A stretch of 44,273 nucleotides of DNA from NCBI GenBank assembly GCA_016234205.1, contig JACRGN010000086.1:1-44273 (forward strand), read 5' to 3'. Made by a program: the position numbers and the translations under genes. Positions 7,138-43,741 of the stretch are shown in pieces (the stretch's first letter is position 1; every line of letters begins with the position of its first letter). The stretch comes from Nitrospinota bacterium (GTDB lineage: Bacteria; Nitrospinota; Nitrospinia; UBA9942). A model generated the notes under the pieces. That model made no database searches, had not been told where the DNA came from, and was given only the letters and a program-made list of their open reading frames with translations.

Positions 7138-7157
7138 ATATGTTTTTTATAATTTAA

Positions 7158-8150: not shown

Positions 8151-8679
8151 GTTAAAAAATCTTAATGAACTCAATAATATTGTTAAGAAATGGAGGGAGA
8201 AGGGGAAAAAGGTAGTATTTGCAAACGGCTGTTTTGATATCCTTCATGTGGGACATATAAGATATCTGAAGGAGGCAAAAGAACTTGGTGACCTGCTCAT
8301 AGTAGCAATAAATAGTGATTCCTCTGCAAAAAAACTCAAAGGGGATGGCAGGCCTGTAACACCTGAAAATGAAAGGGCTGAAATCGTAGCCGCTATTGAA
8401 TATGTTGACTATGTAACTCTTTTTAACGAGCCGAATGTATCCAATCTCCTTTTGACTCTAAAGCCTGATATTCACGCAAAGGGGACTGATTACACTGAAG
8501 ATAGTGTCCCTGAGGCTGATACTGTGAGGGCATACGGCGGAAGGGTGGCAATTACAGGTGATAAAAAAGAAAGGTCATCTACGGAGATAATAAAAAAACT
8601 AAATAAACCACAGACTAACACAGACTTTAAAAATCAAAAAGAACGAAGACTTAATGAAACCACAGATTACACAGATTAA
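8137..8679 (+). CDS. hldC: D-glycero-beta-D-manno-heptose-1-phosphate adenylyltransferase (RfaE domain II)
   Basis: Cytidylyltransferase motif VVFANGCFDILHVGHIRYL. Overlaps the kinase gene by 14 nt. The last ~25 codons read into a CACAGAT-type repeat. Confidence 0.85.
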   Translation: MIMGKLKNLNELNNIVKKWREKGKKVVFANGCFDILHVGHIRYLKEAKELGDLLIVAINSDSSAKKLKGDGRPVTPENERAEIVAAIEYVDYVTLFNEPNVSNLLLTLKPDIHAKGTDYTEDSVPEADTVRAYGGRVAITGDKKERSSTEIIKKLNKPQTNTDFKNQKERRLNETTDYTD

Positions 8680-8793
8680 CACAGATGACAGCATTGCTGT
8701 CATTCTGAGGACGAAGTCCGAAGAATCTCAAAGCGAGATTCCTCGCTTCGCTCGGAATGACATTTCTTTTTTTTAATCTGTGAAAATCTGTGG
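8658..8793. repeat. Nested palindrome: CACAGAT-word outer arms around a CATTCTGAGG/GAATCTC inner element
   Basis: Outer arms AACCACAGATTACACAGATTAACACAGAT / AATCTGTGAAAATCTGTGG. Inner arms TGTCATTCTGAGGACGAAGTCCGAAGAATCTC / GAGATTCCTCGCTTCGCTCGGAATGACA. Confidence 0.9.
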
Positions 8794-8804
8794 CTAAATA
8801 TATT

Positions 8805-9893
8805 ATGAATCGGATACTGATTGTCAAGCTTAGCTCTATCGGTGATGTTGTTCATGCCCTTCCGGTGCTAAGAACTATCAGGTATAACCTCCCCAATTCA
8901 TACATTGCGTGGATTGTTGAAGAGAAGACAAGGGAAATACTGGAGGGGAACAAAGATGTTGACAGGATTATTACTATAAATACTAAAAAGTGGCGCAAGG
9001 GAATGTCATTGCGAGGCGACCCTGAACTTGATTCAGGGGAAGCAATCCCAGCCATATTCAGAGAACTATTGAATGTTATAAACACACTCAGAAAAGAGAG
9101 ATTTGATACCGCAATAGACCTTCAGGGGCTTATCAAGAGCGGTGTTATTTCATATTTAAGCAGGGCAAAGACCCGAATTGGATTTGATTCAGGAAATTGC
9201 AGGGAATCTTTAAACATCCTATTTACAAATAAAAAGGTCTCTCCTGAAAAGGAAGACAGCCATGTAGTTGATAAAAATTTAAGCCTCCTTAAGCCTTTCG
9301 GTTTTAAGGAAATTAAAAGAGATTTTTTTATAAGTCCTTCACCGAAAGATGACAAATATGTAAATGATTTTCTCTTGAAAAGCAGGATAAATGGAAAGCC
9401 CATTATTGCAGTCAATTTAGGTGCAGGCTGGAAGACAAAGGAATGGGGCATAAAAAATTACGCCGGACTGTGCGACCGTATCATTTCAGAAATTGGTGCT
9501 AATATTATTCTTACATGGGGACCCGGCGAGGAGAATATGGTAAAGGGTATTATGGATTTAATGGCATATAAGCCCTTCGTCGCACCACCTACTACATTGA
9601 AACAGCTTGTTGCACTCTTAAGAAGATGTGAACTTTTTATAGGCGGGGATACAGGACCTCTCCATATAGCCGCGGCACTGAAAATACCAACTGTTGCAAT
9701 TTATGGCCCTTCTGACCCATTAAGAAATGGCCCTTATGGAGATAATCATTTTATAATACATAAGAAAATTGAGTGCAGTGGATGCTACAAGAGAAGTTGT
9801 GATACAATTGAGTGCATGAAAATAATTTCAATAGATGATGTTTTCTCGGCAGTTACTAAACAAGTATCAAGTATCAGAGTATCAAAGTATTAA
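8805..9893 (+). CDS. GT9 family LPS heptosyltransferase (WaaC/WaaF-like)
   Basis: ILIVKLSSIGDVVHALPVLRTIR and GGDTGPLHIAAAL motifs. The track ORF starts at GTG 8790; ATG 8805 is the more likely start. Carries an in-frame repeat insertion at 9005-9048. Confidence 0.8.
   Translation: MNRILIVKLSSIGDVVHALPVLRTIRYNLPNSYIAWIVEEKTREILEGNKDVDRIITINTKKWRKGMSLRGDPELDSGEAIPAIFRELLNVINTLRKERFDTAIDLQGLIKSGVISYLSRAKTRIGFDSGNCRESLNILFTNKKVSPEKEDSHVVDKNLSLLKPFGFKEIKRDFFISPSPKDDKYVNDFLLKSRINGKPIIAVNLGAGWKTKEWGIKNYAGLCDRIISEIGANIILTWGPGEENMVKGIMDLMAYKPFVAPPTTLKQLVALLRRCELFIGGDTGPLHIAAALKIPTVAIYGPSDPLRNGPYGDNHFIIHKKIECSGCYKRSCDTIECMKIISIDDVFSAVTKQVSSIRVSKY
9005..9048. repeat. Half CATTGCGAG element inside the heptosyltransferase CDS
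   Basis: GTCATTGCGAGGCGACCCTGAACTTGATTCAGGGGAAGCAATCC, translated in frame as SLRGDPELDSGEAIP. Confidence 0.8.
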
Positions 9894-9930
9894 GACTTTG
9901 ACTCTTTGATACTTTGTATCTTTGACACTT
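9862..9930. repeat. Word palindrome (GTATCAAAG words) spanning the heptosyltransferase stop codon
   Basis: AAGTATCAAGTATCAGAGTATCAAAGTAT ... CTTTGACTCTTTGATACTTTGTATCTTTGACACTT, then TTT. Confidence 0.9.
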
Positions 9931-9949
9931 TTTAAAAGGAGGAGGAATT

Positions 9950-10154: not shown

Positions 10155-10216
10155 GTGTCAGTGTCAGTGTCAGTGTCAGTATTTTTTTCTGACACTGACA
10201 CTATTCACTGACACTG
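10155..10216. repeat. Word palindrome (GTGTCA words)
   Basis: (GTGTCA)x4 + GT ... TGACACTGACACTATTCACTGACACTG. Confidence 0.9.
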
Positions 10217-10230
10217 CTTTATAATTTCCT

Positions 10231-11862: not shown

Positions 11863-11866
11863 CTGA

Positions 11867-11961
11867 AACCACAGATTACACAGATTAACACAGATTTTAA
11901 AATCTTATTCTTATCCATTTCTCCTCGTTATCTTGTGTCAATCTTGTGAAATCTTGTGGTT
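11867..11961. repeat. Word palindrome (CACAGATTA words), imperfect
   Basis: AACCACAGATTACACAGATTAACACAGATT ... TATCTTGTGTCAATCTTGTGAAATCTTGTGGTT. Confidence 0.8.
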
Positions 11962-13563: not shown

Positions 13564-13613
13564 ATTACACAGATTTAATCTATGTAATCTTGTCTTTTAA
13601 TCGGTGTAATCTA
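13564..13613. repeat. CACAGAT-type palindrome between panC and panD
   Basis: GATTACACAGATT/AATCTATGTAATC with no loop, plus an extra AATCGGTGTAATC copy. Confidence 0.8.
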
Positions 13614-14465
13614 TATTTCTTTCACCTCCACTATACAATTATCTATAAGACGGGCATTCCCTATCCTGACAGCTATGGCTATCAGTGCCCTGTCGTTAAT
13701 TATTTTCACATTCTCCAGTGTGTCAGGGTCACAGATAGAGATATAATCTATGTTTATACCCTCTTCGTTCTTAATGACCCTTTCCATTTCTGTTATTATC
13801 TTTTTGGATATCCTCTCGCTGTCCTTTACCATCTCCTGAGATATCTTAAGTGCCTTATATATAGCAGCAGCGGATACTATCTCCTTTTGATTTAAATATC
13901 TATTCCTTGAACTCATCGCAATTCCATTTCCCTCTCTTATTGTTGGCATATTTATAATCTCAATATCTAAATTTAAGTCTCTTGCCATCCTTCTTATAAC
14001 CAACAACTGTTGATAGTCTTTTTCCCCAAAATACGCCTTGTGAGGTTTAATAATATTAAAGAGCTTTAATACAACTGTTGCAACCCCTTTAAAGTGACCT
14101 AATCTAAACTTACCGCATAGGAGTTCTGTAATGTCTTCTACATTTACAAAAGTCTTATACCCTTCCGGGTACATCTCATCCGTTGACGGCAAAAATAAAT
14201 AATCAATTCCACTATCAGATGCTGTTGTCTTATCTTTTTCTATATCCCTTGGATAACTGTGGTAGTCCTCTCCAGCAGTAAACTGGGTTGGATTTACAAA
14301 TATTGAGAGTATAACTACATCATTATCCTTTTTTGCCTTCTCTATAAGGGAAGTATGCCCCTTATGAAGTGCACCCATTGTCGGGACAAAACCGATACTC
14401 TTCCTCTTATTTCTTAAATCCAGAGATGCCTTGTGCATTTCTACAATTGATCCGATTACTTTCAT
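13611..14465 (-). CDS. panC: Pantoate--beta-alanine ligase
   Basis: GFVPTMGALHKGH (HxGH) motif. The true start is probably ATG 14465 (MKVIGSIVEMH...). The 40 upstream codons of the track ORF are translated repeat DNA. Confidence 0.9.
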   Translation of the reverse strand: MKVIGSIVEMHKASLDLRNKRKSIGFVPTMGALHKGHTSLIEKAKKDNDVVILSIFVNPTQFTAGEDYHSYPRDIEKDKTTASDSGIDYLFLPSTDEMYPEGYKTFVNVEDITELLCGKFRLGHFKGVATVVLKLFNIIKPHKAYFGEKDYQQLLVIRRMARDLNLDIEIINMPTIREGNGIAMSSRNRYLNQKEIVSAAAIYKALKISQEMVKDSERISKKIITEMERVIKNEEGINIDYISICDPDTLENVKIINDRALIAIAVRIGNARLIDNCIVEVKEI

Positions 14466-14473
14466 GTAATTAT

Positions 14474-14643
14474 TAGCCACAGAGTTCACAGAGAATGCAG
14501 AGGAAAACAATAAGGAGAAATGGGGAAATTTGAGAAAGGGGGAATGGGAAAAATATTTTATTTTCCCTTTTCTCCATCTCTCCATCTTCTCCCTTTCTCC
14601 TTAATCTTTTTTGTTTTTGTCTTTCTCTGTGCCTCTGTGTCTA
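14474..14643. repeat. Two-layer nested word palindrome between panB and panC
   Basis: Outer arms TAGCCACAGAGTTCACAGAGAATGCAGAGG / CTTTCTCTGTGCCTCTGTGTCTA. Inner arms AAGGAGAAATGGGGAAATTTGAGAAAGGGGGAATGGGAAAA / TTTTCCCTTTTCTCCATCTCTCCATCTTCTCCCTTTCTCCTT. Confidence 0.9.
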
Positions 14644-21956: not shown

Positions 21957-22063
21957 ACCACAGATGAACACAGGTAAACACTGATAAAACAAAAACTTAT
22001 TATAATTCTTCTTTCTTTTAATTCATTAAATAACCTGTGTTAATCTGTGTTTACCTGTGGTTT
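21957..22063. repeat. Word palindrome (CACAG-type words) between the convergent OMP and LuxR genes
   Basis: AACCACAGATGAACACAGGTAAACAC ... CCTGTGTTAATCTGTGTTTACCTGTGGTTT, followed by a T run. Confidence 0.85.
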
Positions 22064-22085
22064 CACGCATTTTTTGGGTTTATAT

Positions 22086-22670: not shown

Positions 22671-22762
22671 AGTGCCAAACCATCTTCCCTTAATCTTTCA
22701 ATATGTTTAATATACAACAAAACGCTCATATTTTACACTATTAAAGGAACAAGAAAAAGATT

Positions 22763-22926
22763 AAGGAGAAATGGGGAAATTAGGGAAAAGGGGAAAAATA
22801 TTAAAAGTGTCAGAGTATCAGAGTATCAAAGTGTCAGAGTAAAAAAACTTTGACACTATGACACTTTGACTCTTTGATACTCTAATTTATCTCTCCATCT
22901 CTCCATCTTCTTCTCCCTTTCTCCTT
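22763..22926. repeat. Two-layer nested word palindrome in the LuxR/PilZ divergent region
   Basis: Outer arms are GGAGAAA-type (22763-22797 / 22890-22926). Inner arms are GTGTCAGAGTATCAGAGTATCAAAGTGTCAGAGT / CTTTGACACTATGACACTTTGACTCTTTGATACTCT. Confidence 0.9.
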
Positions 22927-23035
22927 ATATGTTTTTTATAATTTCCTATACATAAAAAAATCCCACTTTTGAGGGATTGACTGAAAAGCAAATAAATATT
23001 AAAGTTAGTGCAATTTAACATGAGGAGGAGGAAAT

Positions 23036-23371
23036 ATGACTACATTTAATGAAGAGAATAACCGGTTAAAATTGAGAAATCCCTTTAACCACTCATTTTC
23101 TTTTGACCTTATTGATATAGAATTGGGCTATCTGAAGAATGTCAATTGTGCAGGGGTTGGAGTTGATATAAGCGAAACAGGATTAGGGATGGCATCAAAC
23201 CATGCCTTAAAAAAGGCTCAGGTAGTAAAACTCTATTTGCCGTTCTATGAAAAGGATATGCCCTTACCTGTATTTGCAGAGGTGATGTGGTCAAAGGCTG
23301 ACAACAGTTATTTCAGGACAGGTTTAAGATTCTTATACCTGAATGTAACTAACTTCGGGCTTGACCTGTGA
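23036..23371 (+). CDS. PilZ-domain (c-di-GMP-binding) protein
   Basis: 111 aa with RLKLRNPF (RxxxR-like) and GVDISETGLGM (DxSxxG) motifs. Strong SD GAGGAGGAGG. Confidence 0.65.
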   Translation: MTTFNEENNRLKLRNPFNHSFSFDLIDIELGYLKNVNCAGVGVDISETGLGMASNHALKKAQVVKLYLPFYEKDMPLPVFAEVMWSKADNSYFRTGLRFLYLNVTNFGLDL

Positions 23372-23432
23372 TTAAGAGGGTATTTATGGAACAGGCAGAA
23401 TATAAATGTAAATGCTTTGAGTATAGGATGGT

Positions 23433-23505
23433 GTCATTGCGAGGGACTACAGTCCCGAAGCAATCTAAACGGTTAGGGATTGCTTCGTTGTCACTCGCAA
23501 TGACA
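23433..23505. repeat. CATTGCGAG-type palindromic element between the PilZ and FecR genes
   Basis: GTCATTGCGAGGGACTACAGTCCCGAAGCAATC ... GGATTGCTTCGTTGTCACTCGCAATGAC. The right arm supplies the ATG at 23500. Confidence 0.9.
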
Positions 23506-24732
23506 AGAAATATTAAAATCAGGCTCTTAATTTCTTTTATTCTTCTATTCCTTTTCCCCACTCCTTCCTTTGCTGATTCTTCGACAGGCTCAGAAGTCGG
23601 CTCATTTTCAAAAATAGAAGGCAGAGTAGATATACTTAAAGAAGGTGCTCCCACGACTGCCCCTGTAAAGGTCAATGACAATGTCTCTATGGGTGATATA
23701 GTTCGGACAAAAAGTGACGGAAAGGCAGAGATTACATTCAAAGACGACACAACAGTCCGACTTGCCCCTGAAACCCGAATGAAGATAGACGAATATGTCT
23801 TCAATCCTGACAACAGCAGGAAGACAGGGGCTTTAGGTCTATTCAGAGGTAAGGTAAGGGCGGTAGTATCAAAGACAAAGGGCGGCATAATACCTGTAGG
23901 AATAAGCACATCATCATTTAATATAAATACACCAACTGCCATAGCAGGCGTAAAAGGGACAGACTTCTTTGTATTCTACGCTCAAGGCATGACAGGGGTT
24001 ATCTTTAAAGAAGGAAGCGGTTTCGTAGCAAACCCAAACATGCCCGATAAGATTGTGAACATAAATGCAGGACAGATAACCTTTGTAGCAGCCCCTAATG
24101 CCCCGCCATTAACACCAAGACCTGCATCAAATATAGAAATGGCACAACATTCAAAAGATACAACACCGGCAGAAAAACCAAAGGAAAAGAAGGAAGAGGG
24201 GCAGAAACCAAAAGAAGAGAAATCCGAAGTAAAGGAAGCTAAGGCAGAAGATAAAGGGGATAAAGGTAAAGAAGATAAAAAAGATGAAGGTAAATCGGAA
24301 GTAAAAGAGGCAAAGGCAGAGGGGAAGCAAGATGGAGGAGAATCTGAAGGCGAAGGGGAGACATTACTTGCATCCACTTCAGAAGGCACACATGCTGAGA
24401 ACAAAGCAGGTGAAAATCAATCCGAAGGAACACCTCAATCACCAGCCACAGAACAAGCCCCATTAATGACAATGGCAGATAAACCACCTCCAGCAATGGA
24501 AGCAGTAAGTTTCTCGGCAGTTGATATGACAATGGCAGGTCCTGATTTAATGTCTCCAACTATCGGTGGAGATTTGTTTGGATTCGCACCGCCAACTGAT
24601 ATTGGTGTTATACCAGATACAATTGCAACAACAACTACAATACCTGACATATCTACATTATTACCGATTACAGAAACTCAGCCTCAGACACTGAAGAATA
24701 CGGATGTAACAGTGAATGTAGTGTTTCAATGA
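23500..24732 (+). CDS. Secreted FecR-domain protein with a Lys/Glu-rich low-complexity region
   Basis: Signal peptide MTRNIKIRLLISFILLFLFPTPSFA. FecR-type beta domain (VKVNDNVSMGDIVRTKSDGKAEITFKDDTTVRLAPETRM). KSEVKEAKAE occurs twice. Track ORF codons 23368-23499 are repeat DNA. Confidence 0.7.
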   Translation: MTRNIKIRLLISFILLFLFPTPSFADSSTGSEVGSFSKIEGRVDILKEGAPTTAPVKVNDNVSMGDIVRTKSDGKAEITFKDDTTVRLAPETRMKIDEYVFNPDNSRKTGALGLFRGKVRAVVSKTKGGIIPVGISTSSFNINTPTAIAGVKGTDFFVFYAQGMTGVIFKEGSGFVANPNMPDKIVNINAGQITFVAAPNAPPLTPRPASNIEMAQHSKDTTPAEKPKEKKEEGQKPKEEKSEVKEAKAEDKGDKGKEDKKDEGKSEVKEAKAEGKQDGGESEGEGETLLASTSEGTHAENKAGENQSEGTPQSPATEQAPLMTMADKPPPAMEAVSFSAVDMTMAGPDLMSPTIGGDLFGFAPPTDIGVIPDTIATTTTIPDISTLLPITETQPQTLKNTDVTVNVVFQ

Positions 24733-24758
24733 AAAAAACAGAACAAAAACATAATGAA

Positions 24759-24979
24759 ACCACAGAGGCACGGAGGCACAGAGAGGGCAGATAAGAATTA
24801 TGAAACAATCATGTCTATTAATGCCAGACACAAAAAGGGATGAAAATGTCATTGCGAGGGAGCGAAGCGACCGAAGCAATCTAAAAGGCGGGATTGCTTC
24901 GCCGGAGCCTGCCCTGAGCGATGAAACAAGATTGCTTCGCTTCGCTCGCAATGACACAAGCGAAGGGGCTCGCAATGAC
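24759..24979. repeat. Composite repeat cluster (CACAGAGG words plus about 2.5 CATTGCGAG-type units) upstream of the NHL lipoprotein gene
   Basis: AACCACAGAGGCACGGAGGCACAGAGAG; GTCATTGCGAGGGAGCGAAGCGACCGAAGCAATCT; GGATTGCTTCG...ATTGCTTCGCTTCGCTCGCAATGAC; GCTCGCAATGAC. Confidence 0.85.
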
Positions 24980-24994
24980 AAAGTGGGGATTCAG

Positions 24995-27712
24995 GTGAAA
25001 AGAACAATCTTAACCTTAACCTCAGCCTTAACCTGTCTTCTATTGAACTCCTGTGGTGGCGGCGGCGGGGGCTCATCATCAACAGAAGGTGGTAAATCCT
25101 TTGTAAAAATAACATTAGGTGGAAGTGGAAAACCTGTCATCAATTCCGAACAGGGGACAGGCTTTAGAGAAAATTCAATACCCTCAAATATATACAAACT
25201 CTCATTCACAATAAGTGCCTCTGACATGGCAACAGCAAATAAAGATGTTCTTGTTGCAGGACAAACTGCTGTAACAGAAACTTTTTCAATACAAAATGGC
25301 AGCAGCAGATATTTTCTTATAGAGGCAAAGGATAGTTCAGGGACTGTTCTTTATAAAGGGGATACAACAAAAGATCTTGACGGCACACCTGTAACCCTGG
25401 ATATTGTTATGGTTGACCAGAATACAACAGGTGGAGGGACAACTACTACCACCACAGGCACAACTACCACAACTACAACAGCGACAACAACAACTGCAAC
25501 CACTACAACAACCACGACAACAGATACAACAGCGCCGACAGTATCATCAGTAAGTCCCGGGAGTGGCGCAACAGGAGTTGCAATCTCTTCCACCATAACA
25601 GCTACTTTCAGTGAGGCAATGGATTCATCAACGATTACCACATCCACATTTACTGTAGGTGGTGTTTCAGGCACAGTAACCTACTCTGGCACAACAGCCA
25701 CATTTACACCATCGAGCAGTCTCTCTTACTACACCACCTATACAGCAACAATTACAACAGGAGTAAAAGATTCAGCAGGGAATGCAATGGCAAGCAGTTA
25801 CTCATGGAGCTTTACAACAGTACTCATGGGCGGGACGATACAGGGCAGTGCATTAAACCTCACAAGTTCCAATGCTGCTGTTACAACCCTTGCAGGCACT
25901 GCAGATTCTTCCGGCACAACAGACGGCACAGGAACAGCAGCAAGATTTAATAGTCCTAACAATATAACCACAGATGGGACATATCTATTCGTAGCCGAAG
26001 AGGGGAATCATATTATTCGTAAGATTGTTATATCCACAGGGGTTGTTACTACTCTTGCAGGTTCTGCCGGTTCTTCCGGTTCAACCGATGCCACAGGCAC
26101 AGCAGCAAAGTTTAATTCTCCTGCTGGTATAACCACAGATGGGACAAGTCTGTTTGTAGCTGATACTTATAATCACACAATCCGTAAGATTGTAATATCC
26201 ACAGGTGTTGTTACAACTATTGCAGGCACTGCGGGTTCAATTGCCTCAACAGATGGCACAGGCACATCTGCAAGATTTAATTATCCTGCTGGTATAACCA
26301 CAGATGGGACAAATTTGTATATAACTGATTACAATAATCATACAATCCGTAAAATCGTTATATCCACAGGTGTTGTTACAACACTTGCAGGTTCTACTAC
26401 CAGTGGCTCAACAGATGCCACAGGCACAGCAGCAAGCTTTAATAATCCTTATGGCATAACCACAGATGGGACAAATTTGTTTGTAACTGATTGGGGCGGC
26501 ACTACCATCCGCAAAATTGTCATCTCAACTGCGGTTGTTACAACTATTGCCGGTTCAACAGATGGCACAACAGACGGCATAGGCACGGCAGCGCTGTTTT
26601 CTTACCCTGAAGGCATAACCACAGATGGGACAAATTTATTTGTAGCTGATAATGGTAATAGCACTATCCGTAAGATTACACCCACCACACTTATGGGCGG
26701 CTCTATGCAGGGCAATTCGTTAAATCTTACAACTGCGGTTACCACCCTTGCAGGCACTGCACTTTCTTCTGGCACAACTGATGCCACAGGCACATCAGCA
26801 AGATTTGCCCATCCATATCACATTACCACTGATGGGACAAATCTATTTGTAGCTGACCAGACTAATCATACCATCCGTAAGATTGTTATATCCACAGGTG
26901 TTGTTACAACAATTGCAGGCACTGCAGGTTCTGCCGGTTCAACAGATGCCACAGGCACATCTGCATTGTTTAATTCTCCTGCGGGAATAACTACAGATGG
27001 GACAAATCTATTCGTAGCTGATTACTCTAATCATGAAATCCGTAAGCTCGTCATATCCACAGGTGTTGTTACTACTCTTGCAGGAAACTCGAATTCTCCT
27101 GGCTCAACAGATGCCACAGGCACGGCTGCAAGCTTTTATTTGCCTAAAGGTATCACCACAGATGGGACAAATCTATTCGTAGCTGAGGAGGGGAACCATA
27201 TTATTCGTAAGATTGTCATATCCACAGGTGTTGTTACTACAATTGCAGGCACTGCCGGCACAATCGGCTCAACCGATGCCACAGGCACATCTGCATTGTT
27301 TAATTTTCCTCGTGGCATAACAACTGATGGAACAAATCTGTTCATAGCCGATAGTGCTAATAATACAATCCGCAAGCTCGTTATATCCACAGGTGCTGTT
27401 ACAACAATTGCAGGCTCTACTACCAGTGGCTCAACTGACGGCACAGGCACAGCAGCAAGGTTTAAACTCCCCGTTGGTATAACCACAGATGGGACAAATC
27501 TATTCGTTGTTGATAATAATAATTATACAATCCGTAAGCTCGTCATATCCACAGGTGTTGTAACAACAATTGCAGGCACTGCCGGCACAAGTGGCTCAAC
27601 AGATGCCACAGGCACATCTGCATTGTTTAAATCCCCTCTTGGCATAACAACCGATGGGACAAACCTATTCATAGCTGATGGGAGTAATATGACAATCCGT
27701 AAGATTCAGTAG
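24995..27712 (+). CDS. Large lipoprotein: Gly linker, beta-sandwich, poly-Thr linker, Ig-like (Big_5/SbsA-type) domain and 11 NHL-type repeats (5+6)
   Basis: GTG 24995 gives MKRTILTLTSALTCLLLNSC (lipobox). 11 units fit the pattern VTTxAG..GS.GSTDGTGT.A.F..P.GITTDGTNLFVAD..NHTIRKIVISTG. ORF codons 24800-24994 are repeat DNA. Confidence 0.75.
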   Translation: MKRTILTLTSALTCLLLNSCGGGGGGSSSTEGGKSFVKITLGGSGKPVINSEQGTGFRENSIPSNIYKLSFTISASDMATANKDVLVAGQTAVTETFSIQNGSSRYFLIEAKDSSGTVLYKGDTTKDLDGTPVTLDIVMVDQNTTGGGTTTTTTGTTTTTTTATTTTATTTTTTTTDTTAPTVSSVSPGSGATGVAISSTITATFSEAMDSSTITTSTFTVGGVSGTVTYSGTTATFTPSSSLSYYTTYTATITTGVKDSAGNAMASSYSWSFTTVLMGGTIQGSALNLTSSNAAVTTLAGTADSSGTTDGTGTAARFNSPNNITTDGTYLFVAEEGNHIIRKIVISTGVVTTLAGSAGSSGSTDATGTAAKFNSPAGITTDGTSLFVADTYNHTIRKIVISTGVVTTIAGTAGSIASTDGTGTSARFNYPAGITTDGTNLYITDYNNHTIRKIVISTGVVTTLAGSTTSGSTDATGTAASFNNPYGITTDGTNLFVTDWGGTTIRKIVISTAVVTTIAGSTDGTTDGIGTAALFSYPEGITTDGTNLFVADNGNSTIRKITPTTLMGGSMQGNSLNLTTAVTTLAGTALSSGTTDATGTSARFAHPYHITTDGTNLFVADQTNHTIRKIVISTGVVTTIAGTAGSAGSTDATGTSALFNSPAGITTDGTNLFVADYSNHEIRKLVISTGVVTTLAGNSNSPGSTDATGTAASFYLPKGITTDGTNLFVAEEGNHIIRKIVISTGVVTTIAGTAGTIGSTDATGTSALFNFPRGITTDGTNLFIADSANNTIRKLVISTGAVTTIAGSTTSGSTDGTGTAARFKLPVGITTDGTNLFVVDNNNYTIRKLVISTGVVTTIAGTAGTSGSTDATGTSALFKSPLGITTDGTNLFIADGSNMTIRKIQ
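25845..27709 (+). repeat. 11 tandem ~130-135-nt coding repeats (NHL units) with long near-identical DNA stretches
   Basis: Recurring strings such as ATCCGTAAGATTGT(T/C)ATATCCACAGGTGTTGTTAC and ACCACAGATGGGACAAATCT. Confidence 0.9.
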
Positions 27713-27950
27713 CTCGGCAGGCTCACAAAAGTAGGGCAGGTCTTTAGACCTGTAAAAAAAACAAACCCCTAACCCCCTCCCCGATTAATACCCCCGATAG
27801 AAGCATTCGGGGGCAGGCTTTCGGGGACAGGTTTTCCCTGATAAACTTGCCCCCGCATCAAGTGCGGGGCAGACTCTGAAAGCATGTCCCTGCATGATTC
27901 AAGCAGGGACAGTAATCAGGGGAGCATTCAGGGACAGGTTAAGGGGGAAT
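27713..27950. repeat. Cluster of short GC-rich hairpin repeats
   Basis: CAGGTCTTTAGACCTG, CCCCCGATAGAAGCATTCGGGGG, GCCCCGCATCAAGTGCGGGGC and TGTCCCTGCATGATTCAAGCAGGGACA, plus degenerate GGGGACAGG/GGGCAGGC words. Confidence 0.8.
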
Positions 27951-33079: not shown

Positions 33080-33163
33080 AGCCACGAATTTACACGAATT
33101 TACACGAATCAGATACGATGATTTACCATATAATTTAGTGTTAATTCGTATTCATTCGTGGCT
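33080..33163. repeat. Word palindrome (CACGAATT words) between Cyc2-like B and ppiD; acts as a terminator
   Basis: AGCCACGAATTTACACGAATTTACACGAAT ... ATTCGTATTCATTCGTGGCT followed by a T8 run, then the ppiD SD. Confidence 0.85.
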
Positions 33164-33186: not shown

Positions 33187-35073
33187 ATGCTTCAGTTCAT
33201 GAGAGATTATGCAAAATCGTGGTTTATAAAAATTATGCTGTGGACAGTGGTTGCATCGTTTGTCGGCACGATGTTTTTAGTGTGGGGTATGGGAAAAGAG
33301 ACATCGGCAGGCGTTGTTGCCACAGTTGACGGCAAGAAAATAATATACACTGAATATCAGGAATTTTATAAGAGGATATTAGATTTTTATAAGAAACAGC
33401 AGGGGAATTTGAATGAAGAACTGTTCGCCCCTATTGTAAAAAAGGCTGCAATAGATTCTCTTATAACAAGAAAGCTGCAGTTATCCATTGCTAAAAAGGA
33501 GGGTCTGGTTGTAATAGATGAAGAGGTTATTGATGAGATTCAGGGGATGGATGTATTTAAAAAGGATGGCAGGTTTGATAAGGATTTATATATAAGAATA
33601 CTTCAGGCAAACAGGATGAACCCCGGTGGTTTTGAAGATGCGGTGAGGGAAGACCTCCTTGTAAAAAAGGTAGAAAATCTGATTAAGGACGGCGTGAAGA
33701 TTTCAAAAAAAGAGGTGAAGGATGCCTATGCCCGTGCAAATGAAAAGGTGGATGTTGACTATCTTATATTGAGTCCTTCCAATTTTATAAACAGGGTAAC
33801 ATTCGCTCCAGACAAAATAGAAGAATTTTATAATAATAATAAATCCCTTTTTCAAAGAGGGGAGGAGATGGTTGTTGAATATATCGCAGCAGACTCAAAA
33901 GGTTTTGAGGCGAATGTTAAAATTGAGGACAACAGGGTAAATGAATATTATAACGGGCATATAAATGAATATAAACTTGCTAAAAGGGTAAAGGCAGGGC
34001 ATATACTCATTGCTGTTTCACCTGAGGCAGATGAGAAGGCGGAAGTTGAGGGGCGGGCAAAGGCAGTAAAGGTTTTACAGGAATTGAAGGGGGGCGGGGA
34101 TTTTGCTGAGCTGGCAAAGAAATATTCTGATGACCCTAATAAGGGTAAAGGCGGTGACCTTGGCTTTTTTTCAAAGGGACAGATGGTAAAACAATTTGAG
34201 GACGCCGCATTCGCCTTAAAAGAGGGGGAACCGAGCGAGCCTGTCAGAACACCATTCGGTTACCACATAATAAAGGTTGAGAAGATTGAAGATGAGAGGA
34301 CAAAAGGACTGTCAGAGGTAAGAGATGATATTGTAAAGATTTTGAAAGATGGTGATGCAAAAAATATTGCAAAGACTGAACTTGACGGCATAAGAAAGGG
34401 TGCAGATTTAAAGAGTGCTGATTTTAATACTGTTGTAAAAGGAAAGCAGCATTTTACTGCCTCCGGGGGCGGTTTTAAAAAAGATGATAGAGAACACCCT
34501 GTCTTAAGTAAGGCTGCGTTTGCATTAAAGAGGGGAGATGTAAGTGAGATTTTAGAGGATGGCGGAAAATTTTATATATTAAAATATAAAGAGAAAAAGG
34601 ATGCATTCATACCTAAATTTGAAGAGATAAAGGGAGAGGTGGAGAAGGCATACAGGGATGAGGAGGCAAAAAAAATAGTTGACCTTGAGGCAGGCAAGAT
34701 TCTTGAAGATTTGAAAAAGGGGAAGGAGTTTAAGAAGGCAGCTGACGAACTAAAGGCTATGAAGGGGACTACAGGATATGTTACAAGGAATACGATAGCA
34801 TCAAGCATCGGGAGAGATGAAAATCTGGTGCAGACAGTATTTAATACAAAAAAGGGTGATTATAATAAGGTTAAGCTGAACGATAATTATTTTCTGGTAT
34901 ATATCAAGGATAGATTGGGAATTGATGAAAAGAAATTTCAGGAAGAGGAAAAGGAATTTACAAACAGACTGCTGACAGAAAAACAAAATTATACTTACCA
35001 GCAGTGGATTGAAAATACAAAAAAGACGGCTGAGGAGACAGGGAGGATAAAGATAACAAAAGGGTTCATTTAA
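33187..35073 (+). CDS. ppiD: Periplasmic chaperone / peptidyl-prolyl isomerase PpiD
   Basis: MLQFMRDYAKSWFIKIMLW N-terminal anchor, SurA_N-like region and parvulin domain GHILIAV...GGDLGFFSKGQMVKQFEDAAF...TPFGYHIIKV. Confidence 0.85.
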   Translation: MLQFMRDYAKSWFIKIMLWTVVASFVGTMFLVWGMGKETSAGVVATVDGKKIIYTEYQEFYKRILDFYKKQQGNLNEELFAPIVKKAAIDSLITRKLQLSIAKKEGLVVIDEEVIDEIQGMDVFKKDGRFDKDLYIRILQANRMNPGGFEDAVREDLLVKKVENLIKDGVKISKKEVKDAYARANEKVDVDYLILSPSNFINRVTFAPDKIEEFYNNNKSLFQRGEEMVVEYIAADSKGFEANVKIEDNRVNEYYNGHINEYKLAKRVKAGHILIAVSPEADEKAEVEGRAKAVKVLQELKGGGDFAELAKKYSDDPNKGKGGDLGFFSKGQMVKQFEDAAFALKEGEPSEPVRTPFGYHIIKVEKIEDERTKGLSEVRDDIVKILKDGDAKNIAKTELDGIRKGADLKSADFNTVVKGKQHFTASGGGFKKDDREHPVLSKAAFALKRGDVSEILEDGGKFYILKYKEKKDAFIPKFEEIKGEVEKAYRDEEAKKIVDLEAGKILEDLKKGKEFKKAADELKAMKGTTGYVTRNTIASSIGRDENLVQTVFNTKKGDYNKVKLNDNYFLVYIKDRLGIDEKKFQEEEKEFTNRLLTEKQNYTYQQWIENTKKTAEETGRIKITKGFI

Positions 35074-37291
35074 TCAACTTAAAATCAATCTGTCTTTTCT
35101 CTAAACTGACATTTTCAACCTTTACCTTTACCCTATCTCCCATCTTGAATCTTTTCTTTGTCCGTCTTCCTGTCAGTGAATGGTCTCTCTCATTTAAGGC
35201 ATAGTAATCATCAGCCATACCCGATACATGGATAAGCCCTTCAACAAATATCTCCTCCAGTTCCACAAACAATCCAAAAGAGGTTACGCCTGATATAATC
35301 CCTTCATACTCTTCACCAATCTTATCCACCATGAACTGGACCCTCTTTAATTCAACAATATCATTTTCTGCCGCATCTGCCGTCCTTTCTCTCTCTGAAG
35401 AGTGTCGGGCAATCTCAGGGAGTTTCTCCTTCCATAAGTCTAATCTCTTTTTTGGAATATGTTTCTTTTTTATTATTTCTTTTAAAAGTCTGTGGACGAT
35501 TAAGTCAGGGTATCTCCTTATTGGAGATGTAAAGTGGGTGTAGTTCTCAAAGGCAAGACCAAAGTGACCGATATTTTCAGGTGAATACCTTGCCTGTTTC
35601 ATGTGCCTTAAGGTTATTGTAGATATAAGCAGCTCTTCAGGTTTCCCCCTGATACTATTTAGCAGTTCCTGAAATCTCTTTGGATGAAACTTGTTCCCGC
35701 GAAGGCGGGAATCTATTTTTAAATGATAACCAAAATTTGATACAAATTCACTCAGTTCTATTATTTTTGCCGGGTCAGGTTCATCATGCACCCTGTAAAG
35801 GGCAGGTATTTCAAGTTTTGTAAAGTGTGTTGCTACAGTTTCATTCGCCACAAGCATAAATTCCTCAATGATTTTATGGGCAATATTCCTTTCTGCCTTT
35901 ATTATATTTTCAGGTTTGCCCATCAGGTCAAGGATTATATCAGGCTCAGGGAGGTCAAAATCTATACTCCCCTTTTTTATTCTTCTTTCTCTCAAAACCT
36001 CGCACAATTCCCTCATTAAATAAAAATCATTTAACAGATAGGAGTATCTCTCTTTAAGTTCCATATTTAGATTCTTCGCTTCGCTCAGAATGACATTACT
36101 TGAAACTTTGAACTTCGAACTTTGAGCTTCATTTAGTATCTCTGCCACATCTGTATAAGTCATCCTCTCTTTACTGTTTATAACTGTCTCTGCAAAACTA
36201 TAATTTATCAGTTCCCCCTGTATATCAAACTCCATAAATGCACTCAGAGTCAGCCTGTCTACATTTGGTTTTAGACTGCATATCTCATTGGAGAGTTGAA
36301 AGGGGAGCATAGGGATTACCCTGTCAGGGAAATATACACTCGTTCCTCTCTTGAATGCCTCATTATCAAGGTTATTTTCCTCTTTTACATAATGACTCAC
36401 ATCGGCAATATGAACCCCTAACATATAATTGCCATTATTAAGCCTCTCAACATATACAGCATCATCAAAATCCTTTGCCTTCTCTCCGTCTATGGTAACT
36501 ATATTTTTATCTCTTAAATCCAGTCTTCCTATGATTTCATCATCTGTAACCTCTTTTTGAACGGCATCCGCCTCTTTTAAAACATCTATTGGAAATTTTG
36601 AGGATATATCATATTTTCTCAGAACAATATCTATCTCTACATCGGGGTTATCGGGATAACCTATAATCTCTATTATCCTGCCTTCAGGGTTTCTGTTTTT
36701 TATTGGATAGGCTGTAATCTCTGTTATAACTGCATGCCCCCTCTTAGCCTTTCCGCTGTATTTAAGCGGTATATAAATATCATGGCTTATCCTCCTGTCA
36801 TCAGGTATCACAAAGCCAAAGTGGCCGCTCGGTTCGTATATACCGACTAATGTCTTATGCCCTCTCTCTAATATTCTTACAACCCTCCCCTCTCTCTTCC
36901 CGCCTTTTTGGGCTGGTTCAGCCCTGCAGATGACCCTGTCTCCGTGCATTACCTCTCTCATATTTCTTGGATTTATAAATAGGTCTTCTCCTCTGTTAGA
37001 TTCCCCTTCGCTCCGCTCAGGGTCACTACAGGCTTCAGGGATAACAAATCCATAACCGTCAGGATGCCCCTGAACAACACCTGTAACAAGATTCATTTTT
37101 TCGGGGAGCCCGAATCTATCTCCCTTTATCTTTATAATCTCTCCATCACCTGTCAGCCCTCTGATTAATCTCCTGAAAGAACTTCTTTCTTCCAAAGGGA
37201 TATTAAAACTCTTTATCAGTTCCTTCATTGTAAGGGGACGATAAACAGACTCCCGCATAAATTTTAGTATTTCCTGATTTGTAATTTTCAT
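35066..37291 (-). CDS. rnr: Ribonuclease R
   Basis: N-terminal HTH/CSD, RNB domain (DFDDAV..., HFGL...YTHFTSPIRRYPDL) and C-terminal S1 domain. Two in-frame repeat-derived insertions. Confidence 0.92.
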   Translation of the reverse strand: MKITNQEILKFMRESVYRPLTMKELIKSFNIPLEERSSFRRLIRGLTGDGEIIKIKGDRFGLPEKMNLVTGVVQGHPDGYGFVIPEACSDPERSEGESNRGEDLFINPRNMREVMHGDRVICRAEPAQKGGKREGRVVRILERGHKTLVGIYEPSGHFGFVIPDDRRISHDIYIPLKYSGKAKRGHAVITEITAYPIKNRNPEGRIIEIIGYPDNPDVEIDIVLRKYDISSKFPIDVLKEADAVQKEVTDDEIIGRLDLRDKNIVTIDGEKAKDFDDAVYVERLNNGNYMLGVHIADVSHYVKEENNLDNEAFKRGTSVYFPDRVIPMLPFQLSNEICSLKPNVDRLTLSAFMEFDIQGELINYSFAETVINSKERMTYTDVAEILNEAQSSKFKVSSNVILSEAKNLNMELKERYSYLLNDFYLMRELCEVLRERRIKKGSIDFDLPEPDIILDLMGKPENIIKAERNIAHKIIEEFMLVANETVATHFTKLEIPALYRVHDEPDPAKIIELSEFVSNFGYHLKIDSRLRGNKFHPKRFQELLNSIRGKPEELLISTITLRHMKQARYSPENIGHFGLAFENYTHFTSPIRRYPDLIVHRLLKEIIKKKHIPKKRLDLWKEKLPEIARHSSERERTADAAENDIVELKRVQFMVDKIGEEYEGIISGVTSFGLFVELEEIFVEGLIHVSGMADDYYALNERDHSLTGRRTKKRFKMGDRVKVKVENVSLEKRQIDFKLIK
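36070..36130. repeat. Half CATTCTGAG element plus CAAAGTT words inside the rnr CDS
   Basis: AGATTCTTCGCTTCGCTCAGAATGAC + TTGAAACTTTGAACTTCGAACTTTGAGCTTC, translated (minus strand) as QSSKFKVSSNVILSEAKNLN. Confidence 0.8.
36997..37025. repeat. Half element inside the rnr CDS (second site)
   Basis: AGATTCCCCTTCGCTCCGCTCAGGGTCAC, translated (minus strand) as SDPERSEGESN. Confidence 0.7.
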
Positions 37292-37300
37292 AAATAATTT

Positions 37301-37388
37301 AAGGGGACGAGGGTTAAAGAGTTCGAGGGTTCAAGTGATTGAAGCCTTTTTCACTCGACTCCTTGACCCCTTGAATCCTTGAATCCTT
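37301..37388. repeat. Word palindrome (GAGGGTTCAAG words) between rnr and rsmI
   Basis: AAGGGGACGAGGGTTAAAGAGTTCGAGGGTTCAAGTG ... CACTCGACTCCTTGACCCCTTGAATCCTTGAATCCTT. The right arm encodes the rsmI C-terminus. Confidence 0.85.
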
Positions 37389-38076
37389 TGATTATCAACA
37401 CAAACTCCCTCTTCTTCTCCCTGTTCCCGTTTAAAGACATAACGGGACAGGCTTTAATTTTTGCCAATACCTCATCTATCCTGCCTCTTAAGATTTCTTC
37501 AGTATCAGTTGTGAGGTCCATGCACAGGATAACATAAGTTTCCCTCCCCAATATATCCATAATATCTTTTAAGAGGGGAAGAAGCCTGTAAGGTGTATCC
37601 ATAAGGATAACAGGCATCTCTCTTTTAATGCTTAAAAGCTCCTTTTTCCGTATATCACTCTTGGGAGATAAAAAACCGTAATAGCTAAACTTATCAATAG
37701 GGATTCCTGCTGTAACAAGTGCAGACATGATTGATGAGGCACCTGGAACAGGGACTAATTTTATTTTTGATGAGATTGCCTCTTTTATAAGATAGTTTCC
37801 CGTATCAGCAAAGACAGGTGTTCCGCAATCTGTAATAAGGGCAAAATTTTTTCCCTCTTTTAGTTCTTTTATAATCTGCGGCGAATCCTTCTTTTCATTA
37901 TGCTCATTAAGTCTTCTTAAGGGCTTGTCAACCCCATATTGTTTTAAAAGCCTTCTCCCCTCTTTAAATTCCTCACATATCACTTCATCAACACCTTTAA
38001 GCACATTGAGTGCCCTGAGTGTTATATCTCCATAATTACCGATTGGTGTTGAGACTATGTATAGTATTCCGCTCAT
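37351..38076 (-). CDS. rsmI: 16S rRNA (cytidine1402-2'-O)-methyltransferase
   Basis: GILYIVSTPIGNYGDITLRALNVLKGVDEVICE, tetrapyrrole-methylase fold. The last ~12 codons read into a repeat arm. Confidence 0.88.
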   Translation of the reverse strand: MSGILYIVSTPIGNYGDITLRALNVLKGVDEVICEEFKEGRRLLKQYGVDKPLRRLNEHNEKKDSPQIIKELKEGKNFALITDCGTPVFADTGNYLIKEAISSKIKLVPVPGASSIMSALVTAGIPIDKFSYYGFLSPKSDIRKKELLSIKREMPVILMDTPYRLLPLLKDIMDILGRETYVILCMDLTTDTEEILRGRIDEVLAKIKACPVMSLNGNREKKREFVLIIKGFKDSRGQGVE

Positions 38077-38086: not shown

Positions 38087-39226
38087 TCAACCTTCTAATC
38101 TCTTGCCCCTCAACTGTCCGCAGGCAGCACATATATCTGCCCCCTTACTTTTTCTTATAATAGCAGTGTAATGTCTTGAAATAAGAAGATTTTGAAACTC
38201 CTCAACATTTTTATAGTCAGGGGTCTCATAATCTGACCCTTCAAAACTGTTAAATGGAATGAGGTTAATCTTACATTTTATATTCTTAAGTATATTTGAA
38301 AGCCTTTTTGCATCCTCAATGGAATCATTTAACCCCTTTATCATAACATACTCAAAGGTAATCCTTCTATTAGGCGGAAGGGGATATTCTTTTAAAGCCT
38401 TAAGCAATTCTTCAATTGGATATTTTTTATTTACAGGCATGATTTTATCTCTCACCTCATTATCTGATGCAGCCAGAGAGATAGCCAGATTTATTTTAAG
38501 ATTCTCCTTCGCAAGCCGTTTGATTTCAGGGATAAGTCCTGATGTAGAGAGTGTTATTCTTCTTGCAGGTATCTTTAATCCATGAGGAGATATCATGGTT
38601 TTTATGGACTTGATGACATTTTCATAATTATCAAGAGGCTCCCCCATACCCATGAGGACTACATTTGTTATTTTCTTATCTTCATAATACTCAGGAATTC
38701 TGCTGAGATTGCTTCGCCTTTGGCTCGCAATGACTGTTGAAGCAGTAGTGTCATTGCGAGGAACGAAGTGACAAAGCAATCTATATTCAATTTCTCGTTG
38801 GACAGCAAGTATCTGCTCTATTATCTCAAGGTGGTTTAAGTTCCTAATAAATCCACCCTTCCCTGTAAGACAGAATGCACAGCATAATTTACATCCAACC
38901 TGTGTGGATATACATAATGTGAGCCTATCTTCATCAGGAATGAGGACACTCTCTATACTATTACCATCCTCCAATAAAAAAAGATATTTTGATGTGCTGT
39001 CAGATGAAGTTCTTTTATCGGCAATAGAGAGGCGGGATATATAGGCTGATTTGCTTAACTGCTCTCTAAGATTTAGGGAGAGATTTGTCATCTCTCCAAT
39101 ATCACTCACATCCTTCTGAAATACCCATTCATATATTTGGCGGGCTCTGTATGGTTTCTCTCCGAGAGATTCTACGAGACCTTCCATCTCCTGAAGGGAG
39201 AGATTTTTTAAATTAATCTTTTGCAT
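38087..39226 (-). CDS. rlmN: 23S rRNA/tRNA (adenine-C2)-methyltransferase, radical SAM
   Basis: YRARQIYEWV, radical-SAM cluster GCKLCCAFCLTG, MGMGEPLDN, and C-terminal ACGQL. Contains an in-frame palindromic element at 38705-38781. Confidence 0.9.
   Translation of the reverse strand: MQKINLKNLSLQEMEGLVESLGEKPYRARQIYEWVFQKDVSDIGEMTNLSLNLREQLSKSAYISRLSIADKRTSSDSTSKYLFLLEDGNSIESVLIPDEDRLTLCISTQVGCKLCCAFCLTGKGGFIRNLNHLEIIEQILAVQREIEYRLLCHFVPRNDTTASTVIASQRRSNLSRIPEYYEDKKITNVVLMGMGEPLDNYENVIKSIKTMISPHGLKIPARRITLSTSGLIPEIKRLAKENLKINLAISLAASDNEVRDKIMPVNKKYPIEELLKALKEYPLPPNRRITFEYVMIKGLNDSIEDAKRLSNILKNIKCKINLIPFNSFEGSDYETPDYKNVEEFQNLLISRHYTAIIRKSKGADICAACGQLRGKRLEG
38705..38781. repeat. Complete CATTGCGAG-type palindromic element inside the rlmN CDS
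   Basis: GAGATTGCTTCGCCTTTGGCTCGCAATGAC ... GTCATTGCGAGGAACGAAGTGACAAAGCAATCT. Same family as the intergenic copy at 5853-5931. Confidence 0.9.
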
Positions 39227-43635: not shown

Positions 43636-43741
43636 ACGCAAAAATGTCATTCCGAGTGAAACGAGGAATCTCAGTTTTGAGATTCTTCGGGCTTTGCCCT
43701 CAGAATGACCGCATCGCTGTCATCTGCGAAAATCTGCGTCC
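43624..43741. repeat. Nested palindrome: GCAGAT-word outer arms around a CATTCCGAG/GAATCTC inner element
   Basis: Outer arms GGACGCAGATAAACGCAAAA / TCTGCGAAAATCTGCGTCC. Inner arms TGTCATTCCGAGTGAAACGAGGAATCTC / GAGATTCTTCGGGCTTTGCCCTCAGAATGAC. Confidence 0.9.

Follow-up and report, generated by a model that had tools for sequence, protein, structure and literature searches.

The rlmN gene of a Nitrospinota bacterium, which encodes a 23S rRNA/tRNA A-C2 radical S-adenosylmethionine (SAM) methyltransferase, carries within its coding sequence a 78-nt palindrome of exactly 26 codons through which the reading frame stays open. The gene lies in a 44,273-nt stretch of DNA with a G+C content of 38.9% (contig JACRGN010000086.1, analysed at its full length and referred to here as the window). 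The palindrome consists of two inverted copies of a 29–33-nt repetitive extragenic palindromic (REP) unit that is also present at other places in the window and in many bacterial phyla, and the alignments of orthologous genes and proteins identify it as a true, heritable insertion. We favor the explanation, to which we assign a probability of roughly 0.85, that a selfish REP dimer was copied into a permissive loop of RlmN and was filtered there for a length that is a multiple of three and for a frame without stop codons, having no function of its own. The features that bear on this explanation are as follows (ORF, open reading frame; P0049 and P0121 are two RlmN protein fragments from SRR3989338).

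38087..39226, minus strand: rlmN, 23S rRNA/tRNA A-C2 radical-SAM methyltransferase, 379 aa, TIGR00048
38705..38782, no strand: head-to-head REP dimer in rlmN, encoding aa 149–174, RLLCHFVPRNDTTASTVIASQRRSNL
38705..38734, minus strand: left arm, 30 nt, unit GTCATTGCGAGCCAAAGGCGAAGCAATCT(C), with an inner GCC-AAA-GGC hairpin
38735..38749, no strand: loop or spacer between the tagged heads, 15 nt, poorly conserved relative to the twin
38750..38782, plus strand: right arm, 33 nt, unit GTCATTGCGAGGAACGAAGTGACAAAGCAATCT, preceded by T (TGTC tag)
38672..38704, minus strand: extra ~30 nt (SRIPEYYEDKK) adjoining the dimer, absent from empty-site orthologues and common to P0049 and P0121
5852..5931, no strand: intergenic twin of 80 nt, likewise head to head and built from the same two types of arm; 17 nt upstream of the ORF at 5949

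A head-to-head REP dimer within rlmN

The initial annotation had described a complete palindromic element of ~77 nt with a 14-nt loop, in frame inside rlmN. A palindrome is indeed present there and in frame, but it measures 78 nt and its loop 15 nt, and it is better described as a head-to-head dimer of a smaller unit, GTCATTGCGAG-(variable)-GAAGCAATCT, whose GTCA heads face each other and which is seen elsewhere as singlets, tail-to-tail dimers and clusters. The right arm carries a TGTC tag and the left arm an AGTC tag. As annotated, the frame stays open through the element, only two of the six reading frames of the rlmN copy being free of stop codons; the peptides encoded within the insert and the adjoining tail include LLCHFVPR, NDTTASTVIASQR and IPEYYEDK. 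The strong mRNA hairpin that had been anticipated was also borne out by computation, with a folding energy of −32.1 kcal/mol for the RNA of the insert (z = −4.7; 0 of 200 shuffles as good) and of −17.9 kcal/mol for its DNA (z = −4.4). Since, in addition, the 11-mer core GTCATTGCGAG occurs 12 times in the window with at most one mismatch, against 0.37 occurrences expected, the palindrome family is not a product of chance.

The near-identical intergenic element reported earlier is the twin listed above. Its left arm matches that of the rlmN copy at 29 of 30 positions and two substitutions and one indel separate the right arms (about 31/33), whereas the loops have diverged and the limits needed correction to 5852–5931; by blastn the two dimers are 86.6% identical over 82 nt. 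Owing to its length of 80 nt, the twin would not be in frame. Both head-to-head dimers pair the same two different arms, one of the inner GCC-AAA-GGC type and the other of the GAACGAAGTGAC type, which fits copying of the dimer as a unit. Moreover, the motif GAAWTTYCCTG is found 4–6 nt beyond the same end of both dimers, and, judging from this shared position, what is copied may extend a little beyond the palindrome. A search for target-site duplications, which the initial annotation had suggested, revealed no direct repeats flanking any dimer read in the window; GAATAT/GAGTAT would be a possible flanking pair only if the ~30-nt tail is counted within the element. Comparison of this tail by BLAST with the window and 204 loci returned chance matches only, and a resemblance to the NPVNPV-type insert of a related locus, L004, was dropped, as it amounted to ~50% identity in AT-rich DNA.

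The remaining members of the family in the window are listed here.

36070..36095, minus strand: single unit in RNase R, GTCATTCTGAGCGAAGCGAAGAATCT, in frame (VILSEAKNL)
36998..37026, minus strand: variant unit in the OB domain of RNase R, GTGACCCTGAGCGGAGCGAAGGGGAATCT, in frame (SDPERSEGES), at an 11-aa gap relative to Bacillus subtilis RNase R
9005..9048, plus strand: single unit in a GT9 heptosyltransferase gene, in frame, MSLRGDPELDSGEAIP, with gaps there relative to E. coli WaaC
8699..8761, no strand: tail-to-tail dimer, ATTCT/ATTCC stem variants, intergenic
43646..43709, no strand: tail-to-tail dimer, ATTCC/ATTCT variants, intergenic, between the DUF374 and thiamine-binding-protein genes
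23433..23504, no strand: tail-to-tail dimer at the 5′ end of a FecR-domain ORF, probably upstream of the true start (ambiguous)
24848..24979, no strand: three-unit cluster at the 5′ end of an NHL/Big_5 ORF, probably upstream of the true start (ambiguous)

The window thus holds about nine loci of the family in the form of head-to-head dimers, tail-to-tail dimers, a cluster and singlets; four are in frame in three genes, three are intergenic and two are ambiguous. The copies in RNase R coincide with extra protein: alignment with B. subtilis RNase R (8cdu) has only two gaps, of 11 and 19 aa, exactly at SDPERSEGES and AQSSKFKVSSNVILSEAKN, the unit at 36070..36095 lying within the 19-aa segment that B. 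subtilis RNase R lacks. The units have a covarying 5-nt stem inside the head (ATTGC/GCAAT in nine, ATTCT/AGAAT in three, ATTCC/GGAAT in two and ACCCT/AGGGT in one, paired at 5/5 positions in every case, as counted in DNA that was not chosen by motif). These five canonical pairs are followed by a GA/GA(A) interruption and a variable inner hairpin of 2–5 bp with loops of at least 3 nt, often of the GCGAAGC type. Of 195 copies, 167 are preceded by T or C; before GTCATT.. the base is T in 9 of 10 window copies, and T 94, C 64, A 16 and G 11 times in the 120 loci from other genomes described below. Following ..AATC, 108 of 185 copies continue with TC as their tail, which gives a unit end of ..AATCTC.

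Insertion into a loop of RlmN

The product of the interrupted gene is recognizable as RlmN throughout. It matches the curated equivalog TIGR00048 with 430.2 bits (cut-off 290), and its best solved relatives are E. coli RlmN 3rf9/3rfa, to which its alignment splits into two blocks (residues 3–141 and 184–375 against chain residues 17–154 and 168–361). At the break there are ~42 residues in the window protein and ~13 in E. coli RlmN, in agreement with the short E. coli linker noted earlier. The cysteines of the CX3CX2C motif (C112, C116 and C119) and the mechanistic C105 and C369 are all present, invariant among homologues and aligned to those of E. coli RlmN (in which the mechanistic residues are C118 and C355).

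Alignment with orthologues, which had been proposed as a check, indicates that the segment is an insertion. Among 48 close RlmNs, consisting of the window protein and its 47 closest homologues (Nitrospinae/Nitrospinota proteins from metagenome-assembled genomes, MAGs), 34 have a linker of only 3–4 aa at this position (KKD, GHN, NKN, IQEN), whereas 12 of the 47 homologues have other inserts and the insert described here is found in the window protein only. Across 132 homologues, the distance from a conserved Q to N[IV]V.MGMGEP is 12–17 aa in 100, versus 49 aa in the window. The segment is absent from the RlmN of E. coli and Nitrospirota and from most of those of Nitrospinota. At the DNA level, rlmN of the window and of three related loci that share the gene order rlmN, rsmI, rnr (L001, L003 and L004) is 84–90% identical outside the site and unalignable inside it. 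The initial annotation had allowed that repeat-free relatives might carry the same segment; instead, most orthologues are short here, and the same insert was found only in the diverged P0049 and P0121, where it has five variable positions and reads YRLLRHFVPRND(T/I)TASTVIASQKRSNLS(R/G)MPEYYEDKK. These two proteins are 97% identical to each other and each ~89% identical to the window protein over aligned residues, and both have a second insert elsewhere in RlmN that the window protein lacks. That P0049 and P0121 carry the same insert argues that the allele is heritable and diverged, and that it is not an artefact of assembly. L132, considered as a contig broken at the repeat, was rejected as such, being an empty-site allele that begins inside the gene.

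An AlphaFold2 model of the window RlmN, computed from a 64-sequence alignment, has a mean predicted local distance difference test (pLDDT) score of 87.4 and a predicted TM-score (pTM) of 0.87, and by Foldseek it matches E. coli RlmN with TM-scores of 0.85 (5hr7) and 0.90 (3rfa). The only parts of low confidence are the insert, which the model places between the helix at 132–153 and the strand at 188–191, and the last six residues. Specifically, the ten-residue block means of pLDDT over residues 151–180 are 59, 42 and 45, and residues 160–179 fall below 50. Mapping of the insert onto a structure, another check that had been suggested, therefore predicts an intact RlmN fold in which the insert alone is disordered. 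As the loop from a helix to the next strand sits at the N-terminal end of the strands in a radical-SAM partial barrel, the insert would lie on the side of the barrel that faces away from the Fe-S/SAM site, and, as the peptide would be a disordered excursion opposite that site, the enzyme should still fold and presumably still works; we infer that the insert is neutral for the enzyme. Taken with the orthologue alignments, the model is in line with the proposal of the initial annotation that a selfish palindrome occupies a tolerant surface loop in frame, as Rickettsia palindromic elements (RPEs) do.

The same loop is filled by other sequences in relatives. Close homologues contain inserts of the types PPLS..KEGNGVV (seven proteins), LIRQDIQD..NPVNPV (three, one of which holds a nested PLNPPFLRGNKK element) and RDEGRG..SSFVFR (one), as well as one further insert of another type, so that at least three other identifiable palindromic repeat families are found in this loop. 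Inserts of the PPL..KGG type occur at the same place in Nitrospirota, and one metagenomic homologue (L141) has a composite linker of 82 aa. Two of the alternative inserts were folded and are palindromes too (−28.1 and −22.1 kcal/mol). Two further RlmN loops are also filled, after KYLFxL in 7 of 47 and after NLIPxN in 9 of 47 homologues. Among the orthologues, the insert states at the three sites occur in nearly every combination, a pattern suggestive of recombination or of repeated gains and losses. Repeats nested within RlmN-loop repeats were seen in the RlmN homologues P0041, P0034, P0038 and P0049 and in L141; examples are LIRQDIQD..[PLNPPFLRGNKK]..NPVNPV and PPLHPPL[EPVLSEAEG]KGGSGG, the latter having a relative of the REP unit nested in a PPL..KGG palindrome.

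Spread of the unit and its relation to known repeats

The initial annotation had taken the family to be peculiar to this genome. When GTDB species genomes were scanned for the exact pattern, however, the unit turned up in at least 120 contigs from many phyla; the matches listed include Chloroflexota, Patescibacteria, Omnitrophota, Planctomycetota, Desulfobacterota, Atribacterota and Nitrospirae, together with Bacteroidota isolates (Pedobacter, Flavobacterium and Chryseobacterium) and a Rickettsiaceae endosymbiont. Plasmids of cultured bacteria (Methylosinus, Methylocystis, Halomonas, Calothrix and Aulosira) carry it as well; in Methylosinus, convergent genes flank a tail-to-tail dimer. Units in unrelated phyla share 91–97% identity over 33–34 nt with the arms of the rlmN copy, the figure for the right arm and a unit of one unrelated MAG (L080) being 97% over 34 nt. 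Under a strict pattern, the 120 loci contain 27 tail-to-tail, 3 head-to-head and 12 tandem pairings along with 108 singlets. Same-strand tandem arrays with a spacing of ~50 nt were seen at L007 1372–1870, L069 1627–2273 (Chloroflexus sp.) and L048 555–2200 (Ca. Caldatribacterium); such arrays make long spurious open frames (VIASRRRRRSNL...) and could pass for genes or CRISPR-like arrays.

Copies inside genes are found elsewhere as well. Of 196 units in the 120 foreign loci and the window, 23 are located within long open frames at a depth of 60 codons or more, and the interrupted genes confirmed by Pfam outside the window encode GMP synthase, an ATP-dependent DNA ligase (whose adenylation domain is split), a PfkB kinase and HsdS, host lineages of in-frame copies including Patescibacteria and Omnitrophota. 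The clearest cross-phylum counterpart of the rlmN case is the GMP synthase at L029 4073–5743, in a MAG labelled Gammaproteobacteria, where the glutamine amidotransferase (GATase) domain spans an in-frame tail-to-tail dimer, VIARPRSGAAISKNSEIASEGAPRNDD.

Searches for an enzyme that might move the unit gave no candidate. Pfam analysis of 36 further window ORFs found no transposase, and none appears among the 25 most frequent families listed per scan, all of them housekeeping, for 222 ORFs (123 small and 99 larger) beside units at the 120 loci. Likewise, neither a transposase nor an insertion sequence (IS) was seen near the unit in the annotated context of the Methylosinus plasmid. A scan of the whole window against Rfam matched no family, and the DNA motif and six encoded peptides returned only chance primer matches or nothing from the searchable literature.

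The unit most closely resembles the REPs tagged by CGTC or TGTC. As described in the survey by Di Nocera, De Gregorio and Rocco (2013; PMC3733652), these are mostly head-to-head dimers without a dedicated transposase, and their superfamily includes RPE-4 (CGTC-4) and RPE-6 (CGTC-1) of Rickettsia and dRS3 of Neisseria; intragenic CGTC/GTAG REP dimers encoding 20–30 aa are on record there. The survey also defines a CGTC REP by an unpaired CGTC (or TGTC/CCTC) end, A-T residues at stem positions 1–2, a stem of 8–9 bp with a loop of 4–5 nt, and a short unpaired tail with the consensus CCA. Measured against this description, the unit has the unpaired [C/T]GTC head, and its stem begins A-T, T-A in ATTGC/GCAAT, ATTCT/AGAAT and ATTCC/GGAAT, ACCCT/AGGGT having C-G at the second position. 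The frequent inverted dimers (head to head in the rlmN copy and its twin), the presence in several phyla and the in-frame dimers of 20–30 aa are further points of likeness. Unlike the REPs described there, tail-to-tail dimers outnumber head-to-head ones in our cross-phylum sample (27 versus 3), and the hosts now include Nitrospinota, Chloroflexota, Patescibacteria and Omnitrophota. The motif strings of the unit are absent from the text and supplements of the survey.

A Rickettsiaceae genome in our sample appears, from its sequence, to link the family to the RPE-6/dRS3-like REPs. In this Candidatus Tisiphia endosymbiont, a dense cluster of two kinds of [C/T]GTC-tagged unit occupies L060 2100–2850 and 4790–5090, where canonical, CGTC-1-like units with an 8-bp stem and a 4-nt loop (TGTCATTCCCGCGTAGGCGGGAATCTAG; ATTCCCGC-GTAG-GCGGGAAT) adjoin ATTGCGAG..GAAGCAAT units with the same tag. 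The element is therefore probably a new family or a variant within the CGTC/TGTC superfamily, as placed by the published definition, and the earlier view of it as having no relation to RPEs probably does not hold for RPE-4 and RPE-6, to judge by the [T/C]GTC tag and the A-T/T-A start of the stem.

Other systems are less close. RPEs (RPE-1 to RPE-10), whose in-frame occurrence in Rickettsia genes was described by Ogata et al. (2000, 2002), as summarised in a later review (PMC10969869), share with our element a palindromic repeat in frame in a housekeeping gene, a fold-compatible site and a high share of such copies; but the classic RPE-1 is a single element of ~100–150 bp with a conserved peptide, whereas here there is a 78-nt dimer of a 29–33-nt unit, and the host is a free-living-type, Nitrospinae-like genome with many other repeat families. 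REPINs are extragenic REP doublets with a GTAG tag; they are specific to a lineage, are passed on vertically and are flanked by a REP-associated tyrosine transposase (RAYT; Bertels & Rainey 2011, PMC3116915). Like them, our element is an inverted REP doublet with a less conserved spacer, forms a long hairpin and lacks a target-site duplication, and both head-to-head dimers in the window combine the same two heterologous arms, which is what copying of the doublet as a unit would give. Unlike them, it has a [T/C]GTC head and no GTAG, many of its copies are genic, its units are near-identical across phyla, and no RAYT (Y1 transposase) was found in the window or among the families listed beside units. 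In its working the element is REPIN-like, but the lack of a GTAG head and of lineage specificity keeps it outside the REPIN/RAYT system. [quoted passage not shown]

Competing explanations and further repeats in the window

Under the explanation that we favor, a non-autonomous REP-type repeat would have been copied as a dimer into the DNA for the loop that connects helix alpha1 to strand beta2 in the radical-SAM core. Its mobilisation would have been brought about in trans by an enzyme via a single-strand hairpin intermediate, which would be consistent with the absence of a target duplication. Being exactly 26 codons long, read in one of its two stop-free frames and forming a disordered excursion, the insert could then persist as a passenger. 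The repeated filling of the RlmN loop may reflect the tolerance of the loop, a preference of the repeats for pre-existing palindromes, or both.

Several points weigh against this explanation. The ~30 nt beside the dimer are also extra relative to empty-site orthologues and are not accounted for by the element. The unit departs from the published CGTC REP in having five pairs, an interruption and an inner hairpin instead of an 8–9-bp stem with a 4–5-nt loop, and in having the tail CT(C) instead of CCA. Nearest-neighbour folding energies of single units are no better than those of shuffles (z from −1.9 to +1.5), so that the evidence for a hairpin within the unit is its covariation. The mobilisation step is one that we infer, no transposase having been found in the window or listed among the 222 neighbouring ORFs. 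Furthermore, where the loop would lie with respect to the active site is deduced from the topology of the barrel, the translation of the insert and the activity of this RlmN are predictions, and the DNA of this allele is known only from the window, P0049 and P0121 being protein-only records.

Of the alternatives, exaptation survives best, although we consider it improbable: the hairpin might tune the translation or decay of rlmN mRNA, or the extra loop might give RlmN a new interaction. The strength of the RNA hairpin (−32.1 kcal/mol), the retention of the insert in at least three diverged alleles and the filling of the same loop in many relatives speak for such a role. Yet the sequences that fill the loop are unrelated to one another and 34 of 48 close orthologues have none, which argues against a sequence-specific function of the peptide; moreover, the peptide is predicted to be disordered, and the same unit is in frame in unrelated enzymes. 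A still smaller chance attaches to the idea that the insertion inactivated rlmN and that we see an intact-looking but decaying pseudogene. The gene is dispensable in E. coli, but the ORF in the window is full-length, retains all catalytic cysteines and invariant motifs and scores well above the TIGR00048 cut-off, its product has a predicted fold that is intact, synteny is conserved, and the inserted allele persists with an open frame in diverged lineages. An error of assembly, in which a repeat was wrongly threaded into rlmN, is very unlikely; short dispersed repeats are a known source of misassembly and the exact DNA is present on one contig only, but the flanks within rlmN are collinear, the insert is exactly 26 codons with an open frame, in-frame RNase R units are common to the independent assemblies of the window and L003, and the two non-identical protein records from another run that carry the same insert nearly refute this idea. 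Finally, the notion of an ancestral segment lost in other orthologues, to which one might be led by the flank VQREI that insert-bearing alleles share, unlike the REKK or REGH of empty alleles, is refuted by what the segment is, namely a copy of a repeat dispersed in intergenic DNA of this genome and present as units in other phyla, and by its absence from the RlmN of E. coli, Nitrospirota and most Nitrospinota.

In-frame palindromes of this kind were, in a 2024 review of MITEs (PMC10969869), regarded as a near-speciality of Rickettsia ("protein-coding palindromes"), a few other species having been added in 2013 (PMC3733652). With four in-frame copies in three genes within 44 kb, a Nitrospinae-like genome shows Rickettsia-like behaviour at a comparable density. 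The kind of event is known, and the present case is a new example of it. Its interest lies mainly in the re-use of the same protein loops by several families and in a cross-phylum unit of ~30 nt without a known mobilising enzyme. The series of RlmN orthologues (empty, with at least four fillings, nested, and at three sites) can be read as a natural map of where a radical-SAM enzyme tolerates insertions and offers a clean system for studying how such repeats choose targets and move. In practice, such inserts inflate and fragment gene calls and profile-HMM (hidden Markov model) matches in metagenome annotation.

A wider and much more speculative idea, which we rate as rather doubtful, is that coding loops, once filled, become permanent landing pads through which unrelated palindrome families cycle by insertion into or next to a hairpin, by nesting and by replacement, and that the [T/C]GTC-ATTGCGAG unit is a hairpin element that is compatible with coding sequence and spreads horizontally, having been carried across more than 10 phyla by a trans-acting enzyme. 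Touching on this idea are the three RlmN loops, one RNase R loop and the rsmI–rnr spacer, which hold different families in genomes that are 85–99% identical elsewhere, the nested elements in P0041, P0034 and P0038, and the two unrelated palindromes of equal length at one position of RNase R. If it were true, conserved enzymes of uncultivated lineages rich in repeats would acquire hypervariable peptide loops by way of such landing pads.

The genes next to rlmN show further repeats. RNase R (ORF 35066..37291, minus strand) is 97–99% identical among three genomes except in one 23-aa segment (window 36032–36160), which consists of SSKFKVSS and the VILSEAKNL unit in the window and L003; at the same place and with exactly the same length, L001 has an unrelated G-rich palindrome (GQGASLPLQVVSRGGKGQGEN). 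RsmI (ORF 37351..38076, minus strand) has at window 37405–37450 a private insert of 27 nt and 9 aa, ACPVMSLNG, that is absent from three orthologues and whose DNA pairs with an adjacent native ACAGG to form a hairpin of −12.5 kcal/mol; from its sequence it resembles a duplication of the snap-back or quasi-palindrome kind more than a repeat of the family. In the rsmI–rnr spacer (window 37292–37380) and the C-terminal tail of RsmI, each of the window, L001, L003 and L004 has a different palindromic repeat, the types being TTCAAGGGGTCAAGG, CACGAAT, CACAGAT/ACAGACTTT and CTGACA, and each repeat spans the stop codon and alters the last residues of RsmI.

Short repeats are unusually abundant in this genome. 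Intergenic spacers of the window are filled by at least five more families of them, most of which are palindromic; these include the types CACAGAT, TCTCCATCT..CTCCTTA and its inverted partner, AGTATCAGAG, CTGACAC and CACGAATTTACACGAA. They are located as follows.

378–415: further repeat
7036–7155: further repeat
8589–8686: further repeat
9869–9932: further repeat
10184–10221: further repeat
11845–11909: further repeat
14501–14623: further repeat
22029–22083: further repeat
22752–22944: further repeat
24736–24766: further repeat
33080–33163: further repeat

In the longest ORF of panC (13611–14585, minus strand), the 42 aa upstream of the Pantoate_ligase domain run into a repeat (14566–14623), and the true start probably lies downstream of that of the longest ORF. 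The same caution about starts applies to the ORFs at 23368..24732 and 24800..27712, whose 5′ ends run through repeat units. The latter, a 970-aa NHL/Big_5 surface-protein ORF, also includes eleven tandem units of 165 nt (55 aa) at window 25875–27741; these are those of an ordinary repeat-domain protein and are unrelated to the palindromes.

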